Shown here one piece after another: positions 3,391-36,044 of a stretch of DNA of 64,000 nucleotides. Source of the DNA: Escherichia coli (GTDB taxonomy: Bacteria > Pseudomonadota > Gammaproteobacteria > Enterobacterales > Enterobacteriaceae); assembly GCF_046105845.1 (NCBI RefSeq), contig NZ_CP151004.1. One strand, written 5' to 3'. Position 1 is the stretch's first letter; every line of letters begins with the position of its first letter. The notes below the pieces were generated by a model. It was not told the origin of the DNA, made no database searches, and worked only from the letters and a program-made list of their open reading frames with translations. A program made the position numbers and the translations under genes.

Positions 3391-3448
3391 TTCGTAGACA
3401 AACATGTTCACGTTTTGGAATTTGGACGTGCAATTGTGACGTGTAGAC

Positions 3449-3473
3449 GGGTGTTTACATATTGTGAACACCC
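3449..3473. promoter_or_regulatory. Inverted repeat GGGTGTT-N11-AACACCC upstream of the toxin gene; candidate antitoxin operator
   Basis: Perfect 7-bp inverted arms read directly in the sequence; a second related pair (tgttcac near 3406 / gtgaaca near 3464) lies nearby; about 85 bp upstream of the ATG at 3557. Confidence 0.35.
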
Positions 3474-3556
3474 GTGTGATCAACTACTATAGAAAAATAA
3501 ATCCGAAGGAATGGTAGTCCAGGTTTAGTCATTCAGGCGCTAATAAGGAAGTTAAA

Positions 3557-3868
3557 ATGCACATCATTTCTAAAGCGCCATTTGAAGAGTGTGCGCGCAA
3601 ATATCCTAACGACGCTCTGGCTCTACACTCATTGTATCGGGTTATTAAGGAAACGGATTTTTCTACACCAGAAGAAATGCGAACGGCGTTTCCCAACCTC
3701 GACAATTTTAGATATCGCAACAAATGGTACGTTCTGGATGTCGGCGGGAACAATCTTAGGGTTATTGCCTACATAAACTTTGTTAATAAGCGGTTCTTTG
3801 TGAAGCACATAACGAATCACGCAGAGTATGACAAACTGACACGTTACTACAGAGAGAACAAAGAATGA
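3557..3868 (+). CDS. HigB-family (RelE/ParE superfamily) mRNA-interferase toxin
   Basis: 103 aa; recognisable similarity to E. coli HigB (FPNLDNFRY...YVLDVGGNNLRVIA); SD aaggaag upstream; toxin-first order typical of higBA. Confidence 0.75.
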   Translation: MHIISKAPFEECARKYPNDALALHSLYRVIKETDFSTPEEMRTAFPNLDNFRYRNKWYVLDVGGNNLRVIAYINFVNKRFFVKHITNHAEYDKLTRYYRENKE

Positions 3869-4284
3869 CTGCTAATGCTGCACGCGCTGTTAAAGCAACA
3901 AGAGAACTGGTCAATGCAGTCCCCTTTCTGGGAGGTAGTGACTCAGAAGATGATTATCGTGAAGCACTGGAACTGGTCGAATATTTGATTGAAGAAGATG
4001 ACACCAATCCACTTATCGACTTTCTGGCGAGCCGCATTGCAGAATATGAAAACAACAACGAAAAGTTTGCCGAGTTCGACAAAGCCGTTGCAGCAATGCC
4101 GGTTGGCGTGGCGTTACTTCGTACGCTGATTGATCAACATAATCTGACCTATGCGGATTTGAAGAACGAAATCGGCTCTAAATCCCTGGTCAGTCAGATT
4201 TTGTCTGGACAACGATCCCTGACGATATCCCATATTAAGGCACTTTCAGCCCGATTTGGCGTTAAGCCGGAATGGTTTCTTTGA
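3865..4284 (+). CDS. HigA-family HTH (XRE-type) antitoxin
   Basis: 139 aa; start overlaps toxin stop (ATGA); C-terminal HTH-like segment (GSKSLVSQILSGQRSLTISHIKALSARFG) resembling HigA. Confidence 0.75.
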   Translation: MTANAARAVKATRELVNAVPFLGGSDSEDDYREALELVEYLIEEDDTNPLIDFLASRIAEYENNNEKFAEFDKAVAAMPVGVALLRTLIDQHNLTYADLKNEIGSKSLVSQILSGQRSLTISHIKALSARFGVKPEWFL

Positions 4285-4310
4285 TTTTGACTGATGCCAA
4301 ACGCCAGATT

Positions 4311-4335
4311 GCCCGATGCGCAACGCTTATCGGGC
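4311..4335. repeat. REP-like palindromic element
   Basis: gcccgatgcgcaacgcttatcgggc resembles the REP consensus; lies between the antitoxin gene and the ascB 3' end. Confidence 0.4.
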
Positions 4336-4362
4336 TTTCCTGGTTAGTGCGACAGTAGTTAC

Positions 4363-7253
<2,891 letters not shown>

Positions 7254-24076: not shown

Positions 24077-24577
24077 ATGACAGAATCAACGTCCCGTCGC
24101 CCGGCATATGCTCGCCTGTTGGATCGTGCGGTACGCATTCTGGCGGTGCGCGATCACAGTGAGCAAGAATTGCGACGTAAACTCGCGGCACCGATCATGG
24201 GCAAAAATGGCCCGGAAGAGATTGATGCCACGGCAGAAGATTACGAGCGCGTTATCTCCTGGTGCCATGAACATGGCTATCTCGATGACAGCCGATTTGT
24301 TGCGCGCTTTATCGCCAGCCGTAGCCGCAAAGGTTATGGACCTGCGCGTATTCGTCAGGAACTGAATCAGAAAGGTATTTCCCGCGAAGCGACAGAAAAA
24401 GCGATGCGTGAATGTGACATCGACTGGTGCGCACTGGCGCGCGATCAGGCGACGCGAAAATATGGCGAACCTTTGCCAACTGTCTTTTCAGAAAAAGTTA
24501 AGATCCAGCGTTTTCTGCTCTATCGTGGCTATCTGATGGAAGATATCCAGGATATTTGGCGAAATTTTGCCGACTGA
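24077..24577 (+). CDS. recX: RecA regulator RecX
   Basis: 166 aa immediately downstream of recA. Confidence 0.92.
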
Positions 24578-24705
24578 ACGCATACGGGATTTTACTTCCC
24601 AGTCAAGAAAACTTATCTTATTCCCACTTTTCAGTTACCAGCCGGGCGGTTAACGACACGCAACGGCTGGTAGCGATATTTCGTTAGCTTGATTTCAGGA
24701 TAATT

Positions 24706-27336
24706 ATGAGCAAGAGCACCGCTGAGATCCGTCAGGCGTTTCTCGACTTTTTCCATAGTAAGGGACATCAGGTAGTTGCCAGCAGCTCCCTGGTACCCCA
24801 TAACGACCCAACTTTGTTGTTTACCAACGCCGGGATGAACCAGTTCAAGGATGTGTTCCTTGGGCTCGACAAGCGTAATTATTCCCGCGCTACCACTTCC
24901 CAACGCTGCGTGCGTGCGGGTGGTAAACACAACGACCTGGAAAACGTCGGTTACACCGCGCGTCACCATACCTTCTTCGAAATGCTGGGCAACTTCAGCT
25001 TCGGCGACTATTTCAAACACGATGCCATTCAGTTTGCATGGGAACTGCTGACCAGTGAAAAATGGTTTGCCCTGCCGAAAGAGCGTCTGTGGGTTACCGT
25101 CTATGAAAGCGACGACGAAGCCTACGAAATCTGGGAAAAAGAAGTAGGGATCCCGCGCGAACGTATTATTCGCATCGGCGATAACAAAGGTGCGCCATAC
25201 GCATCTGACAACTTCTGGCAGATGGGTGACACTGGTCCGTGCGGCCCGTGCACCGAAATCTTCTACGATCACGGCGACCACATTTGGGGTGGCCCTCCGG
25301 GAAGCCCGGAAGAAGACGGCGATCGCTACATTGAGATCTGGAACATCGTCTTCATGCAGTTCAACCGCCAGGCAGATGGCACGATGGAACCGCTGCCGAA
25401 GCCGTCTGTAGATACCGGTATGGGTCTGGAGCGTATTGCTGCGGTGCTGCAACACGTTAACTCTAACTATGACATCGACCTGTTCCGCACGCTGATCCAG
25501 GCGGTAGCGAAAGTCACTGGCGCGACCGATCTGAGCAATAAATCGCTGCGCGTAATCGCTGACCACATTCGTTCTTGTGCGTTCCTGATCGCGGATGGCG
25601 TAATGCCGTCCAACGAAAACCGTGGTTATGTACTGCGTCGTATCATTCGTCGCGCAGTGCGTCACGGTAATATGCTCGGCGCGAAAGAAACCTTCTTCTA
25701 CAAACTGGTTGGTCCGCTGATCGACGTTATGGGCTCTGCGGGCGAAGACCTGAAACGCCAGCAGGCGCAGGTTGAGCAGGTGCTGAAGACTGAAGAAGAG
25801 CAGTTTGCCCGTACTCTGGAGCGCGGTCTGGCGCTGCTGGACGAAGAGCTGGCAAAACTTTCTGGTGATACGCTGGATGGTGAAACGGCTTTCCGTCTGT
25901 ACGACACCTATGGCTTCCCGGTTGACCTGACGGCTGATGTTTGTCGTGAGCGCAACATCAAAGTTGACGAAGCTGGATTTGAAGCAGCAATGGAAGAGCA
26001 GCGTCGTCGTGCGCGCGAAGCCAGCGGCTTTGGTGCCGATTACAACGCAATGATCCGTGTTGACAGTGCATCTGAATTTAAAGGCTATGACCATCTGGAA
26101 CTGAACGGCAAAGTGACCGCGCTGTTTGTTGATGGTAAAGCGGTTGATGCCATCAATGCAGGCCAGGAAGCTGTGGTCGTGCTGGATCAAACGCCATTCT
26201 ATGCTGAATCCGGCGGTCAGGTTGGTGATAAAGGCGAACTGAAAGGCGCTAACTTCTCCTTTGCGGTGGAAGATACGCAGAAATACGGCCAGGCGATTGG
26301 TCACATCGGTAAACTTGCTGCGGGTTCTCTGAAAGTGGGCGACGCGGTGCAGGCTGATGTTGATGAAGCTCGTCGCGCCCGTATTCGTCTGAATCACTCC
26401 GCAACGCACCTGATGCACGCGGCGCTGCGCCAGGTTCTGGGTACTCATGTATCGCAGAAAGGTTCACTGGTTAACGACAAAGTGCTGCGCTTCGACTTCT
26501 CACACAACGAAGCGATGAAACCAGAAGAGATTCGTGCGGTCGAAGACCTGGTGAACGCACAGATTCGCCGTAACTTGCCGATTGAAACCAACATCATGGA
26601 TCTCGAAGCGGCGAAAGCGAAAGGTGCGATGGCGCTGTTCGGCGAGAAGTATGATGAGCGCGTACGCGTGCTGAGCATGGGCGATTTCTCCACCGAGCTG
26701 TGTGGCGGTACTCACGCCAGCCGCACTGGTGATATTGGTCTGTTCCGCATCATCTCTGAATCGGGTACTGCTGCAGGCGTTCGTCGTATCGAAGCGGTAA
26801 CCGGAGAAGGCGCTATCGCCACCGTTCATGCAGACAGCGATCGCTTAAACGAAGTCGCGCATCTGCTGAAAGGCGATAGCAATAATCTGGCTGATAAAGT
26901 GCGCTCAGTACTGGAACGTACGCGTCAGCTGGAAAAAGAGTTACAACAGCTTAAAGAACAAGCTGCCGCACAGGAGAGCGCAAATCTTTCCAGTAAGGCA
27001 ATTGATGTTAATGGTGTTAAGCTGTTGGTTAGCGAGCTTAGCGGTGTTGAGCCGAAAATGTTGCGTACCATGGTTGACGATTTAAAAAATCAGCTGGGGT
27101 CGACAATTATCGTGCTGGCAACGGTAGTCGAAGGTAAGGTTTCTCTGATTGCAGGCGTATCTAAGGACGTCACAGATCGTGTGAAAGCAGGGGAACTGAT
27201 TGGTATGGTCGCTCAGCAGGTGGGCGGCAAGGGTGGTGGACGTCCTGACATGGCGCAAGCCGGTGGTACGGATGCTGCGGCCTTACCTGCAGCGTTAGCC
27301 AGTGTGAAAGGCTGGGTCAGCGCGAAATTGCAATAA
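24706..27336 (+). CDS. alaS: Alanine--tRNA ligase
   Basis: 876 aa; class II aaRS motifs; C-terminal [15 protein letters not shown]. Confidence 0.97.
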
Positions 27337-30116: not shown

Positions 30117-31700
<1,584 letters not shown>

Positions 31701-31708
31701 CAGAAAAG

Positions 31709-31781
31709 AAAAAGGCCACTCGTGAGTGGCCAAAATTTCATCTCTGAATTCAGGGATGATGATAACAAATGCGCGTCTTTC
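31709..31781 (-). ncRNA. micA: MicA (SraD) small regulatory RNA
   Basis: Minus strand reads gaaagacgcgcatttgttatcatcatccctgaattcagagatgaaattttggccactcacgagtggccttttt, i.e. the MicA sequence with its terminator hairpin. Confidence 0.9.
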
Positions 31782-31849: not shown

Positions 31850-32365
31850 ATGCCGTTGTTAGATAGCTTCACAGTCGATCATACCCGGATGGAAGCGCCT
31901 GCAGTTCGGGTGGCGAAAACAATGAACACCCCGCATGGCGACGCAATCACCGTGTTCGATCTGCGCTTCTGCGTGCCGAACAAAGAAGTGATGCCAGAAA
32001 GAGGGATCCATACCCTGGAGCACCTGTTTGCTGGTTTTATGCGTAACCATCTTAACGGTAATGGCGTAGAGATTATCGATATCTCGCCAATGGGCTGCCG
32101 CACCGGTTTTTATATGAGTTTGATTGGTACGCCAGATGAGCAGCGTGTCGCTGATGCCTGGAAAGCGGCAATGGAAGACGTGCTGAAAGTGCAGGATCAG
32201 AATCAGATCCCGGAACTGAACGTCTACCAGTGTGGCACTTACCAGATGCACTCGTTGCAGGAAGCACAGGATATTGCGCGTAGCATTCTGGAACGTGACG
32301 TGCGCATCAACAGCAACGAAGAACTGGCGCTGCCGAAAGAGAAGTTGCAGGAACTGCACATTTAG
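31850..32365 (+). CDS. luxS: S-ribosylhomocysteine lyase (AI-2 synthase)
   Basis: 171 aa; [10 protein letters not shown] metal-binding motif. Confidence 0.96.
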
Positions 32366-32381: not shown

Positions 32382-32414
32382 AGGCCGGGCTGGTGAAATC
32401 ACCGCCCGGCTTTT
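32382..32414 (+). terminator. Intrinsic terminator shared by convergent luxS and the HD-kinase gene
   Basis: gccgggc-tggtgaaatcaccg-cccggc hairpin followed by tttt; the minus-strand stop is at 32416..32418. Confidence 0.75.
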
Positions 32415-32415
32415 A

Positions 32416-33528
32416 TTACCTGTCAGTCACCCAATATTCCACACTATGTGCTTCATCAGGTTGAGGAACTTCCAGCCTTGAGGCCATCCGCATCACGACC
32501 GCTTCAGGAACTGCATACTCGCGTCTGGCATTTTGCTGCTTCCATTGCTCCCATGGCACTTCCAGATAAACGATTTTTACTCGTGCGCCGTAAGCCGTAA
32601 ACAGACTGATGAGCTGGCTACGCAGCTGGCGGGTAATGTTCGTCGCATTCCAGATGAACGGCTTTTTCTGGCGTAAAAAAACGCGCGCCTCTTCTTTTGC
32701 CTGTTGCACAATACGCCCGGTGGCGGTTTTGTCGTCCGGGCTGGCATTGATTCGCCGCCGCATATCATCAAGGCTGATAACGTCCATTCCCAGGCACAGT
32801 TCACTGATATAGCGATCTTTGCCCATACCCGGTAAGCCACACAGCAAAATAACCTCAAAAGATTCAGCCTCCCAGGGAACAAAATCAGGAGAACTTTGCT
32901 CATGAGTCAGGTAGTGCCAGCGTGCGGAATCAGACACGAACGGGCGCGCTTTTCCCCAGCATTGTTGCTCATGGCAAAACAGCTCGAACAGATCGATGCG
33001 TTCCAGCATTGATTGCTGGTCCGGGCTTTGGCGACCAAGCAGATCGGCACGAGCAAGCAAAGCGAGCAAACGCGTGTCGATGCGCATTGCAGCTGTGAGC
33101 AGCAAACGCTCCGGTTCCGGACGTTCCAGTAACCATAGCGGTAACCCATGCAGACGCACCAGCGCAACAATTTGCTCGCGTAGCACGAACGGCGTTGGGA
33201 TATCGCGCCATAAAATTTGTCGGGCCGTCAGTTCGCCCCGACGAGCATGGCCAGGCGACTGAATACGTCCGTTTTCCTGCACGGTAGTGCTGCGCTTTTC
33301 AACATCATGCAATAACGCCGCCGCCCATAAAACTTCCTGCTGTTGAGCGGGGAGTTGCTGGAATTCTGGCAGAGTAACGAGGGCGTTAAGTACCATTTCG
33401 GTATGCACGCCGACGTCGCCTTCACCATGATGCTCCGGGTCTTGTGGCGTGTGATGCATCTCCTCAACCCAACTGAAACGCTGGCGTAGCGCCGACCAGC
33501 GTTTATCGTCGGTAAGCTGCCAAATCAT
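32416..33528 (-). CDS. HD-domain phosphoesterase fused to a P-loop polynucleotide-kinase-like domain (putative end-healing enzyme)
   Basis: 370 aa; N-terminal HD signature ([11 protein letters not shown] ... AALLHDVEK ... GHARRG ... RLHGL ... ARADLLGR); C-terminal Walker-A-like [12 protein letters not shown] with Walker-B-like DVISLDD; start overlaps the upstream ligase stop (ATGA). Confidence 0.65.
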
Positions 33529-34232
33529 GATTGTTCTCCATAGGTGAACTCATGGGCCATCCGCGCCCGTTGCCAGTGGCGTTTCCAGTGTACGGTAGTT
33601 TTGACATGATTTTTGCGTACATACTTGAAGACGTTATGCGAAAAGTCAGCGACGGAAAACGCATCACGATTCCGGCTGACAATGCCTTCCAGCGTACAGG
33701 GTTGCCCGGTTTGTGTATCCCAGGGATCGAACGCGCCGCGCGCATTGGTCAGCGCCAGAAAATCACGTTGCCAGCTTTTTTCATCATTCCCCGGCTGCGG
33801 GCCGGAGATTTCGGGAACGCAGGGGAAATCAAACAGAGCGGCGTAAAACTGCACCTCTTCCCAGCTCAGCCACATATCCTGGCAGCGAACGGCAAACAGA
33901 TAAAAATCCTGCTCCAGGGCGCGATATTCAATCGAATGGACGGCATAAAGATTTTCACCAAACAACTCCAGATCGCCGAGATCGTTTTTCAGCAGTTGCC
34001 AGCGTTGGCGAATTTTATAGGTCCATGCCGACTGCGTAGGCGCGGCATGGGAACGGGCAAACACGCCGTAGCGGTTAAGGCAGTTATTTTCACCGTCGAG
34101 TTTTTCTGTGTGCACCAATTGCGTGATGGCCTGTAAATCCTGCCAGTAATCGGTGTTAATACGGTCATCGCTGGTGGTGCCAGGGGAGAAAGGATAATGC
34201 CAGGTTCTCCCGTATTTTCGTTGGGTATTCAT
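33525..34232 (-). CDS. ATP-dependent RNA ligase, Rnl2-like nucleotidyltransferase
   Basis: 235 aa; motif [10 protein letters not shown] (KxDGxN), motif III-like [11 protein letters not shown], motif IV-like EGIVSR, motif V-like FKYVRKNH. Confidence 0.65.
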
Positions 34233-34456
34233 AATAATCCATTATTTTGTGTGTAATAAATGTACGCCCGCGAGGGTGCGAGTTATGGGGTTAAAAGAAA
34301 AATGTGAGTATCACCCGCGAAAGCGAGGGCGAAGGAAAAAGAGAATTAACAACCTGAGCGAATGCTCAGAACCGGTTAATGGTGAATGGAAGAGTTTGGG
34401 GCGGCGAAAAGATACACCGAATGAGTGGATAAAACAACCGTTTGCAAAATGAGCAA

Positions 34457-34480
34457 ATAAAAAGGGAGCCGCAGCTCCCT
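34457..34480 (-). terminator. Intrinsic terminator of emrB
   Basis: Minus strand: gggagctgcggctccc hairpin followed by tttttatttg. Confidence 0.7.
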
Positions 34481-34489
34481 TTGACAACC

Positions 34490-36028
34490 TTAGTGCGCAC
34501 CACCTCCGCCGCCACCTGCGCCAAATGGCGGTTTAGCAAACCACACCAGCCCCAGCAGGACGAGGAATATCCCAGCTGACATCCAGAAGATCTCATTGGC
34601 GGAAATAATCAGCCCCTGATTGGTGATCTGCTGGGCAATCCAGCCTGATGCCTGCTGTTGCGTCATCCCAAGCCCTTCCAGTTGACTATACATCGCCTGG
34701 GCATTCGGGTTGAACGGGTTTACCGACTCAGTCAACTGCGCATGGTGCATCGACTCGCGGTTGGTCCACATGGTAGTGGTTATCGACGTGCCGATAGACC
34801 CCGCCAGCGTTCGCGTAAAGTTAGAGAGGCTCGATGCTGCCGCCAGTCGTTCCGGTGGCAAACCAGACAGCGTAATGGTGGTCAGCGGCATAAAGAAGCA
34901 GGCCACCGCAAAACCCTGGATAAACTGCGGCCAGGCCGACGCGCCAAAATCCATACCTGGTTCAAAGGTATAGGCACGCCAGTAGAAGCAGACGGCATAC
35001 ATAATAAAGCTGAAGGTTACCAGCCGCCGCATATCCAGTTTATGCGCGAAGCGGCCGATAATCGGCGACAGGATCACCGGAATAATTCCTACCGGCGCAG
35101 AGGCCAGACCTGCCCACGTTGCCGTGTAACCGTAGACCTCCTGCAACAACTGCGGCAGCAGAACAATCGCGCCGAAGTAGAGCATATACGCGAGGCTGAT
35201 ACACAAGCAGCCGATGGTGAAGTTGCGCGACTTAAACAACGACAGATCGACTATCGGGTTATCGTCGGTCAGCTCCCAGACAATCAGGAAGCAGATAGCC
35301 ACCACTGCCACCACGGTAAGGATGATAATTTCCTGTGATGAGAACCAGTCCAGCTCTTTACCGCGGTCGAGCATAATCTGCAGGCTACCGATACCAATAA
35401 CCAGCAGTGCCAGCCCCACGGCATCAATCCGCCGCCGTTCGGTGCGGGTTTCACGTCCGCGCAGGGTTTGCAGTGTCATCAACACCACCGCCACGCCAAT
35501 CGGTACGTTGATGAAGAATATCCAGCCCCAGTGGTAATTGTCACTGATATACCCGCCGAGGATCGGGCCGCAAATTGGCGCGACAATCACCGTCATCGAC
35601 CACAACGCCAGCGCGATCGAGCGTTTGGCTGGCGGGTAGTTATTCAGCAATAGACTTTGCGAAAGCGGAATTAACGGCCCGGCGACAATCCCCTGAATCA
35701 CGCGGAAGAAGATCAGCATATTCAGGCTGCTGGAGACACCACACGCCCACGACGCAATAGCAAAGGCGATGGTTGACCAGAGGAACAGTTTCACTTCCCC
35801 GACGCGCTTTGCCAGCCAGCCGGTAAGCGGGATCGAGATGGCATTCGCCACCCCGAAAGAAGTGATTACCCACGTTCCCTGGCTGAGCGATGAGCCCAGA
35901 TTCCCGGCGATAGTGGGGATCGCCACGTTAGCAATGGTGGAGTCCAGCACCTGCATGAATGTCGCCAGTGACAGCGCAATCGTCATAATGACCAGTTGCG
36001 CGCCTTCCAGCGGTTTTTGCTGTTGCAT
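34490..36028 (-). CDS. emrB: Multidrug efflux MFS permease (14-TMS DHA2)
   Basis: Start at MQQQKPLEGAQL; large hydrophobic protein downstream of emrA. Confidence 0.93.
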   Translation of the reverse strand: MQQQKPLEGAQLVIMTIALSLATFMQVLDSTIANVAIPTIAGNLGSSLSQGTWVITSFGVANAISIPLTGWLAKRVGEVKLFLWSTIAFAIASWACGVSSSLNMLIFFRVIQGIVAGPLIPLSQSLLLNNYPPAKRSIALALWSMTVIVAPICGPILGGYISDNYHWGWIFFINVPIGVAVVLMTLQTLRGRETRTERRRIDAVGLALLVIGIGSLQIMLDRGKELDWFSSQEIIILTVVAVVAICFLIVWELTDDNPIVDLSLFKSRNFTIGCLCISLAYMLYFGAIVLLPQLLQEVYGYTATWAGLASAPVGIIPVILSPIIGRFAHKLDMRRLVTFSFIMYAVCFYWRAYTFEPGMDFGASAWPQFIQGFAVACFFMPLTTITLSGLPPERLAAASSLSNFTRTLAGSIGTSITTTMWTNRESMHHAQLTESVNPFNPNAQAMYSQLEGLGMTQQQASGWIAQQITNQGLIISANEIFWMSAGIFLVLLGLVWFAKPPFGAGGGGGGAH

Positions 36029-36044
36029 CACACGCACCTCTGGA

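Follow-up and report, generated by a model that had tools for sequence, protein, structure and literature searches.

The HD-Pnk/LIG family of end-healing and sealing proteins has been known biochemically since 2017, and we know of no phenotype for it outside Deinococcus. In this family a small ligase (LIG) is paired with a protein that carries an HD phosphoesterase domain and a polynucleotide kinase domain (HD-Pnk). Here we describe a LIG/HD-Pnk pair from Escherichia coli. It is located between luxS and emrB in a stretch of 64,000 nucleotides (nt) from contig NZ_CP151004.1 (assembly GCF_046105845.1), which is called the window in the following.

Two relatives of the pair have been described. 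In Runella slithyformis HD-Pnk is immediately preceded by a small ligase open reading frame (ORF) whose 3' end runs into the start of HD-Pnk, and Tpt1 belongs to the same cluster (PMC6097658). Kinase (5') and 2',3'-phosphoesterase activities have been characterized for the Runella HD-Pnk (PMC6097658). The Runella ligase self-adenylylates, and it sealed none of the 3'-OH/5'-PO4 substrates that were tried (PMC6097658). In Deinococcus radiodurans the genes DR_B0100 (ligase, LigB/DdrP), DR_B0099 and DR_B0098 (HD-Pnk) form a radiation-induced operon. Resistance to ionizing radiation requires DR_B0098. In the presence of this protein and PprA, DR_B0100 reportedly acts as a DNA ligase (PMC6300522).

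The E. coli locus resembles the Runella pair in size and gene order, with a 370-amino-acid protein composed of an N-terminal HD domain and a C-terminal kinase domain, and an upstream ligase gene that overlaps it (PMC6097658). Unlike the Runella cluster, it has no adjacent Tpt1 or methyltransferase-HIT genes and occupies a conserved core site of the Enterobacteriaceae. With the Deinococcus operon it shares the order of ligase first and HD-Pnk last, whereas that operon includes a macro-domain/PARG gene, is induced by radiation and is linked to DNA-damage resistance; such a link is not known for enterobacteria, nor does their gene context suggest one. The healing and sealing systems of phage T4 and of other bacteria are built differently. 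The phosphatase of the cassette is an HD domain, while that of T4 Pnkp is a DxDxT acyl-phosphatase, and the order of the two domains is reversed. LIG also lacks the C-terminal tRNA-binding domain of T4 Rnl1, and the cassette is chromosomal where the T4 system is phage-borne. Compared with the bacterial Pnkp/Hen1 and Pnkp1-Rnl-Hen1 systems, the cassette has no Hen1 2'-O-methyltransferase, its phosphatase is of the HD rather than the calcineurin type, and its ligase is a separate small protein.

Homologues from Bacteroidota, the phylum of Runella, share 52-59% identity with the E. coli HD-Pnk, and those of the ligase share ~60-65%. The HD-Pnk homologues include one from Dyadobacter, a member of the same family as Runella. 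The likeness to Runella was judged from the published description of that locus (PMC6097658), with the Bacteroidota homologues as a sequence proxy. The E. coli pair can be assigned with good reason to the end-healing and sealing family HD-Pnk/LIG. We further propose, with a probability of roughly 0.65, that the locus is an intact two-gene nucleic-acid end-healing/sealing cassette that is orthologous to the R. slithyformis LIG/HD-Pnk.

The two proteins of the E. coli locus

Both genes are on the minus strand. The upstream gene (33525..34232) encodes LIG, a 235-amino-acid protein with the features of an ATP-dependent RNA ligase adenylyltransferase, and its downstream partner (32416..33528) encodes the 370-amino-acid HD-Pnk; the two ORFs share 4 nt (ATGA) at 33525-33528. 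The left flank of the pair is luxS (31850-32365, plus strand), and the right flank is emrB (34490-36037, minus strand) with emrA beyond it. In E. coli K-12, luxS and emrB are separated by a gap of just 63 base pairs (bp), which includes a terminator hairpin unlike the one found in the window at 32383..32414.

The LIG protein matched the Pfam family RNA_ligase (PF09414) from end to end (E=4e-28) and also the RNA-ligase families of PHROGs. In an alignment of 62 homologues, with identities down to 28%, the residues K44, D46, G47, E93, E182, G183 and K203 were invariant. The motifs of the nucleotidyltransferase superfamily were invariant or nearly so in this alignment: motif I (K44-L-D-G, or KxDG; the K44 codon is at nt 34101-34103, minus strand), motif III (E93), motif IIIa (FYLFAV), motif IV (E182-G183) and motif V (K203). 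A further conserved segment, K6-Y-x-R-T-x-H-x-P-x-S...DD, is present at the N-terminus.

An AlphaFold2 (AF2) model of LIG reached a predicted local distance difference test score (pLDDT) of 94. When this model was compared with known structures by Foldseek, the top matches were Naegleria Rnl5 (NgrRnl), T4 Rnl2, archaeal Rnl3, Trl1-LIG and T4 Rnl1, all with a probability of 1.0, a TM-score of ~0.5 and identities of 15-19%; DNA ligases scored far below the RNA ligases. A profile of the LIG family aligned K44, E93 and E182 with K170, E227 and E312 of NgrRnl, residues which are mutated in deposited structures. The best match of the profile in the PDB was the adenylyltransferase domain of Candida glabrata Trl1 (E=1e-4). 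A search of the PDB with the single LIG sequence gave only spurious multi-repeat hemocyanin matches, and the family profile was needed to reach the RNA ligases.

Little of the chain follows motif V, the last residue being 235, and the AF2 model shows no counterpart of the C-terminal helical domain that Rnl2 requires to seal nicks. The N-terminal OB domain of Rnl5 is absent as well; only ~37 residues precede motif I, and they hold the short KYxRTxH...DD segment instead. LIG is therefore a bare stand-alone catalytic domain which forms its own clade.

HD-Pnk is composed of an N-terminal HD metal-dependent phosphoesterase domain (32899..33528, minus strand; approximately residues 1-210) and, at the C-terminus, a P-loop domain of the 5'-OH polynucleotide kinase type (32416..32859, minus strand; residues 224-370 plus the stop codon). 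The kinase domain matched Pfam AAA_33 (E=1e-32, residues 226-355). The Pfam HD match was weak in the E. coli protein (E=0.013), and 23/27 members of the family matched it at E<=0.001. Among 27 homologues the metal ligands of the HD domain, H34, H74-D75, H94, H127 and D162, were invariant; the same holds for the kinase residues K237, D254 (the general base) and the phosphate-binding R257 and R336, an active site of the T4 Pnk type. The kinase residues belong to a P-loop of the form GLPGMGKD (K237, D238) and to the motif SLDDMRR (D254, R257), which is followed by WNATN and then by R336. The AF2 model of HD-Pnk has two domains (pLDDT 92). The structural neighbors of the kinase domain are polynucleotide kinases, and alignments to 4gp6 and T4 Pnk back the mapping of the residues. 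The best neighbor of the HD domain is a tRNA-3'-end enzyme family, and the HD domain of CCA addition/repair was also found.

These data bear on a first-pass annotation, which had been made from the DNA letters only. It had placed two minus-strand genes between luxS and emrB, and the ORFs are exactly as it stated; the adjacency of luxS and emrB in K-12, and hence the lack of the pair there, is borne out by the 63-bp spacing. It had read RNA-ligase nucleotidyltransferase motifs in the upstream protein, in agreement with the PF09414 match, the invariant motifs and the adenylyltransferase fold of the model. The proposed fusion of an HD domain to a P-loop kinase in the downstream protein is corroborated by the AAA_33 match, the invariant ligands and catalytic residues and the structural neighbors. 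Its comparison of the pair with the HD-Pnk family from the Shuman laboratory holds in view of the size, domain order and overlapping upstream LIG that match PMC6097658. The label "Rnl2-like" for the ligase is correct at the level of Pfam and goes too far beyond it; LIG has no Rnl2 C-terminal domain, and Naegleria Rnl5 and fungal Trl1 are as close to it as Rnl2 is.

If the two proteins act as their domains predict, the pathway would start with a break made by a transesterifying RNase (a colicin, toxin-antitoxin or abortive-infection RNase) or by metal or alkali, which would leave 2',3'-cyclic-phosphate or 3'-phosphate ends and 5'-OH ends. The HD domain of the 370-amino-acid protein would hydrolyze the 3'-terminal phosphate to give a 2',3'-OH end, and the P-loop domain would move the gamma-phosphate of a nucleoside triphosphate (NTP) onto the 5'-OH. 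The 235-amino-acid LIG would react with ATP via K44 to form ligase-AMP, adenylylate the 5'-phosphate and join it to the 3'-OH. The healing steps have been shown for the Runella orthologue only, and we infer them by analogy for the E. coli HD-Pnk. Sealing by LIG is a prediction too; self-adenylylation alone has been reported, for the Runella ligase.

Two observations were made on the side. The P-loop of HD-Pnk is of the type GxxGxGKD (K237-D238, window 32815-32820), in which an Asp replaces the usual Ser/Thr after the Lys; this was invariant in 27/27 homologues. In addition, the ligase domain was found embedded in much longer proteins of 650-2,357 amino acids (P0285, P0290, P0351 and others), several of which have two ligase-like repeats. 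One of them, P0285 (1,408 amino acids), combines a ligase domain at 616-833 with a Pnk-like kinase domain at 1139-1274.

Operon partners and candidate substrates

We examined the gene order in 88 loci, among them 80 species-level loci (of 278 species-level hits) from two phyla, in Enterobacterales and Bacteroidota. In 88/88 loci LIG immediately preceded HD-Pnk and had the same orientation. The neighbors were clustered across the 80 species-level loci. An RtcB-family ligase was co-oriented beside the pair in 24 of the 80, and in 12 of those 24 PrfH (identified by TIGR03072, E=1e-92) was also present, between RtcB and LIG. The genes of this four-gene form, rtcB-prfH-LIG-HD-Pnk, are tightly spaced or overlapping. 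Two phyla have it, Pseudomonadota (in Serratia) and Bacteroidota (in Bacteroides and Dysgonomonas); one Dysgonomonas locus has an extra small ORF between PrfH and LIG. While rtcB-prfH directly precede the pair in these genera, the pair stands alone in the window. The other neighbors were genus-specific housekeeping genes, such as dnaB-alr-tyrB in Xenorhabdus.

A module of PrfH and RtcB2 rescues and religates ribosomes cut by colicin E3 (PMC9304027, PMC9223846); in the PrfH literature that we checked, the LIG/HD-Pnk neighbors are not mentioned. RtcB joins a 3'-phosphate or 2',3'-cyclic phosphate to a 5'-OH directly with GTP, whereas LIG/HD-Pnk would use the opposite end chemistry. The linkage to RtcB and PrfH is the strongest sign, albeit one of guilt by association, that damaged RNAs of the translation machinery are what the pair acts on. 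Serratia and Bacteroidota have the pair as part of RtcB-PrfH operons for ribosome repair, which makes tRNA or rRNA likely substrates, and damaged forms of these RNAs are the candidates to which the fusions point. A role in mending RNA breaks, as the first-pass annotation had proposed, is strengthened by the linkage in these other taxa; its idea that a chromosomal copy could counter tRNA anticodon nucleases is a hypothesis.

The substrate could also be DNA. The cassette would then heal and seal DNA breaks: HD-Pnk would take off 3'-phosphates and phosphorylate 5'-OH ends at broken DNA strands, and LIG would be a minimal DNA ligase. HD-Pnk is indeed cited as a "DNA/RNA end-healing enzyme" (PMC6097658), and the Deinococcus operon, with its induction by radiation, the role of DR_B0098 in radiation resistance and the DNA ligase activity of DR_B0100 (PMC6300522), speaks for this possibility. 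However, all structural and profile neighbors of LIG are RNA ligases, with DNA ligases much lower, and LIG is devoid of an OB or other DNA-binding domain. The HD domain is like that of enzymes for tRNA CCA addition/repair, and the recurrent operon partners are RtcB and PrfH rather than DNA-repair genes. The gene context favors repair of translation-apparatus RNA over repair of DNA, and we regard the DNA explanation as quite improbable.

A second question is which ends LIG would join. Fungal and plant tRNA ligases depend on 3' ends that bear a 2'-phosphate. If LIG shared this need, it would not be a conventional sealer of 3'-OH/5'-PO4 ends, and its product would depend on Tpt1/KptA, which removes the 2'-phosphate; alternatively it could do no more than adenylylate an RNA or protein target. 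The best profile match in the PDB, the adenylyltransferase domain of C. glabrata Trl1 (E=1e-4), is in line with this, as is the lack in LIG of the accessory substrate-binding domain of other RNA ligases. On the other hand, all ligase motifs for steps 1-3 are conserved, and no Tpt1 is found among the recurrent neighbor families named in the 80 loci, which are RtcB, PrfH and housekeeping genes. Furthermore, HD-Pnk reportedly removes 2'-, 3'- and 2',3'-cyclic phosphates (a 2017 result ascribed to Munir and Shuman) and would destroy a 2'-PO4 end. The failure of the self-adenylylating Runella ligase to seal 3'-OH/5'-PO4 ends and the clustering of that pair with Tpt1 (PMC6097658) count in favor of the 2'-phosphate scheme, which we nevertheless judge to be unlikely.

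Several points weigh against our proposal of an end-healing and sealing cassette. The 5'-OH kinase and the transition-metal-dependent 2',3'-phosphoesterase activities are known from the proteins of Runella and Deinococcus alone and are predicted for the enterobacterial ones, and the comparison with Runella is by published description. The Runella ligase sealed no 3'-OH/5'-PO4 substrate tried (PMC6097658), and the homologous Deinococcus operon is linked to DNA-damage resistance (PMC6300522). The E. coli pair is located beside emrB and luxS and not beside RtcB or PrfH. E. coli ATCC 25922 resists colicin E3 via RtcB2-PrfH though its LIG gene is frameshifted; the RtcB2-PrfH protection in this strain therefore needs no LIG. 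Finally, the pair is broken in several E. coli lineages, which implies that its function is dispensable.

Age and decay of the cassette

The arrangement emrB-LIG-HD-Pnk, facing luxS/gshA, was found at the same site in eight genera of Enterobacteriaceae. The genomes include those of E. albertii, Escherichia sp. MOD1-EC7003, Citrobacter europaeus, Klebsiella spallanzanii, Kosakonia, Phytobacter, an "Enterobacter" sp., Superficieibacter and an Enterobacteriaceae metagenome-assembled genome. The identity of the proteins is 97% within E. coli and 93% to E. albertii; it decreases to 77-78% for Citrobacter, Klebsiella and Kosakonia and to 71% for Superficieibacter. We estimated the synonymous divergence (dS) of the pair and of its flanking genes. 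Between the window and E. albertii, dS was 0.42 and 0.24 for the pair, 0.35 for emrB and 0.28 for luxS. For the comparison with Citrobacter the values were 1.06 for LIG, 0.93 for emrB and 0.97 for luxS; HD-Pnk was saturated and gave no estimate. The ratio of nonsynonymous to synonymous divergence (dN/dS) was 0.03-0.17 for the two genes (0.03-0.11 for LIG), which indicates purifying selection. The GC content of the pair (0.52-0.56) is like that of its flanks, and no repeats, integrase or tRNA were found at the site of the cassette.

The cassette is therefore an old, vertically inherited resident of the emrB-luxS junction that was ancestral in Enterobacteriaceae. The first-pass annotation was right in that the composition does not look foreign, the GC content being close to that of the surroundings. 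Its view of the pair as an insertion has to be abandoned in light of the emrB/luxS site shared by eight genera and of dS values equal to those of emrB and luxS. The same two facts imply that the state of K-12 is a loss.

In complete E. coli genomes the pair was present in 999/5,426 (~18%), each time as a single chromosomal copy and never on a plasmid. A search of plasmids gave only two weak matches, to Proteus records that are labeled as plasmids, yet are 4 Mb long and are evidently chromosomes. The E. coli carriers include sequence type 131 (ST131), APEC IMT5155, LY180 and O145:H28.

Such a patchy presence in E. coli could be a sign of a mobile anti-phage defense or counter-defense module, of phage origin and recently inserted into E. 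coli. Both proteins match PHROGs families, the RNA ligases and the polynucleotide kinases, respectively. A phage search gave distant kinase-domain matches and a single homologue from a jumbo phage. This uncultured phage (LR756500.1, 462 kb) encodes at 24519-25559 a full-length HD-Pnk homologue, with 34% identity over 94%, and its record is the only one from a phage with both the HD and the kinase domain. The remaining data are hard to reconcile with a mobile module. Neither LIG nor HD-Pnk matched a defense-system family in PADLOC (E<=0.01); there are no plasmid copies, flanking repeats or integrase, and the pair is always at a single chromosomal site. The conservation of this site in eight genera, the dS values equal to those of flanking genes and the native GC content make an origin as a recent mobile insertion extremely improbable.

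The pair is disrupted in 4/7 of the sampled E. coli carriers, with the window included in the count. LIG is frameshifted in Nissle (L092) and ATCC 25922 (L095) and has an internal stop in VCSW7 (L002), the closest relative of the copy in the window; in O145:H28 RM13516 (L093) it is HD-Pnk that is interrupted by a stop. Read from these sequences, the cassette is being lost in E. coli, either by deletion as in K-12 or by pseudogenization. The disrupted copies, together with the absence of the pair from 82% of the complete E. coli genomes, raise the question of whether it is a decaying relic with no current function in this species. We think that this is very unlikely. The window, ST131 and SCPM-O-B-8794 have intact copies of both genes, as do Escherichia sp. 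MOD1 and E. albertii; all catalytic residues are kept, dN/dS is low (0.03-0.17), and the leader of the cassette is ~98% identical in the five E. coli strains that were aligned.

The presence of an intact copy in E. coli brings the question of what this minimal ligase joins into the best genetic system available. Intact carriers, including ST131, can be set against K-12, which is a natural null, and the natural pseudogenes of Nissle, ATCC 25922 and O145:H28 are ready-made comparisons.

Leaders and flanking features

The gap between emrB and LIG is 257 bp long. It begins with an intrinsic terminator of emrB (34459..34482, minus strand), which was found in a terminator scan as a 9-bp stem followed by a T-run; it is kept in related genera and divides emrB from the leader of the cassette. 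The rest of the gap, the 5' leader/promoter region (34233..34458, minus strand), is strongly conserved across genera of Enterobacteriaceae. The conserved features, all on the minus strand, are a block GGTTGTTTTATC (34428-34439), a possible 13-codon ORF with a GUG start (34376-34417; GUG at 34417, stop at 34376-34378) that encodes VYLFAAPNSSIHH, a hairpin CCGGTTCTGAGCATTCGCTCAGG directly after the stop of this ORF (34353-34375), two GC-rich hairpins (34312-34331 and 34265-34282) and the Shine-Dalgarno region AATAATGGATTATTATG (34230-34246). The leader blocks are kept across seven or eight genera though the proteins are only 71-78% identical. The fold of the leader had a z-score of -2.6.

The frame and the stop position of the GUG ORF are kept in 7/8 genera (as TAA, TAG or TGA; TAG in ST131) despite compensating indels. 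No Shine-Dalgarno sequence is present ahead of the GUG. The bases of this region may instead be a -10 box; a TTGTTT is located 17 nt upstream, which gives the candidate TTGTTT-17-TATCTT when read by eye. A sigma-70 scan found no minus-strand promoter above threshold in the leader. RNAalifold detected no compensatory pairs in seven enterobacterial leaders, the conserved blocks being free of variation. The leader of the window and those of four orthologous loci had no match in Rfam. As an intrinsic attenuator the leader hairpin was rejected; its U-tract is not conserved between genera. From its sequence, the E. coli leader is conserved and probably regulatory.

Leaders of a different kind were found in other lineages. 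In the 63 operons in which LIG is the first gene, the motif ATGTAA, in which a stop codon directly adjoins the start codon, was present in 40/63 leaders, compared with 7.5 expected from shuffles; in most cases a further T makes it ATGTAAT. Its distance to LIG is 86-124 nt, and it occurs in Morganellaceae and many Bacteroidota, among them Xenorhabdus, most Providencia, Proteus, Chitinophagaceae, Dysgonomonas and Saprospiraceae; examples upstream of LIG are L036 (~6890-7004), L063 (~6910-7000), L076 (~6880-6990) and L085 (~6175-6290). The motif is absent from the RtcB-first operons. In Bacteroidota a TAnnTTTG promoter box, as read from the sequences, is located 35-45 nt further upstream of ATGTAA, and the motif is thus transcribed. 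Rfam has no family for these start-stop leaders, and a limited literature search found no paper on them.

In ways that are specific to each lineage, the start-stop region can pair with the region of the LIG start codon. With one representative per genus, the mean energy of the cognate duplex was -12.7 kcal/mol, versus -8.1 for mismatched partners, and 0/20,000 derangements reached the value observed for the cognate duplexes. When a ribosome-sized mask was placed on the start-stop, the computed cost of opening the initiation region of LIG fell from 6-15 to 2-4 kcal/mol. This effect was obtained in 8/11 Bacteroidota and 3/3 Proteus leaders tested, and a control mask elsewhere had no effect. It was absent in Xenorhabdus, in Providencia and in the E. 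coli window.

These findings make translation-dependent control of these repair operons a reasonable hypothesis. More specifically, expression of LIG/HD-Pnk might be gated by a leader that senses translation, the E. coli leader perhaps being a diverged version; we offer this idea tentatively. A ribosome that is held on AUG-UAA, for example when a ribotoxin impairs decoding or termination, may free the initiation site of LIG, and the repair operon may in this way be switched on by the very defect that it repairs. If true, the start-stop sensor would be a rare bacterial case of an elongation-free upstream ORF that controls a stress-repair operon, and the leader is a candidate for a new cis-regulatory element. 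The start-stop mechanism does not carry over directly to the window, since masking does not open the E. coli LIG start site.

Two further upstream sequences were seen in RtcB-first operons. In the rtcB-prfH-LIG-HD-Pnk operons of Serratia (L006, L007, L018, L022) a small ORF is located ~90-140 nt upstream of rtcB (~2380-2430 in L006). This ORF of 16 codons, which encodes MNYQALFTLCGSYPQA, has a strong Shine-Dalgarno sequence (AAGGAGG...ATG) and is shared by different species. In Bacteroides the rtcB-first operons (L057/L060 ~4100-4240, L071, L077, L074, L082) have another conserved sequence upstream, TTCACTTCAATGCAGTGGA...GCATTGG...CGCATATTGCA, which looks structured.

At the other end of the cassette, a GC-rich hairpin with T-runs, read from the sequence at 32383..32414, separates the convergent luxS and HD-Pnk genes and is probably a bidirectional terminator. 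To the left of luxS is gshA (30144-31700). The small RNA MicA (31710-31781, minus strand; Rfam RF00078, 83.9 bits) is located between these two genes, its usual place in E. coli, and was the only Rfam match in the stretch of the window that was searched.

Over its full 64 kb the window follows the gene order of E. coli K-12 collinearly, with 96.5-98.5% identity. Apart from the cassette, the only other large indel relative to K-12 is at 3393-4357, between hycI and ascB. It contains a HigB-family toxin gene (3557-3868, plus strand) and a gene for a helix-turn-helix (HTH) antitoxin (3865-4284, plus strand), a pair found in 919/5,426 complete E. coli genomes. Toxins of the HigB type cleave mRNA in a ribosome-dependent manner, as endonucleases, and the HigB-like toxin is a possible source of RNA ends that LIG/HD-Pnk would heal.

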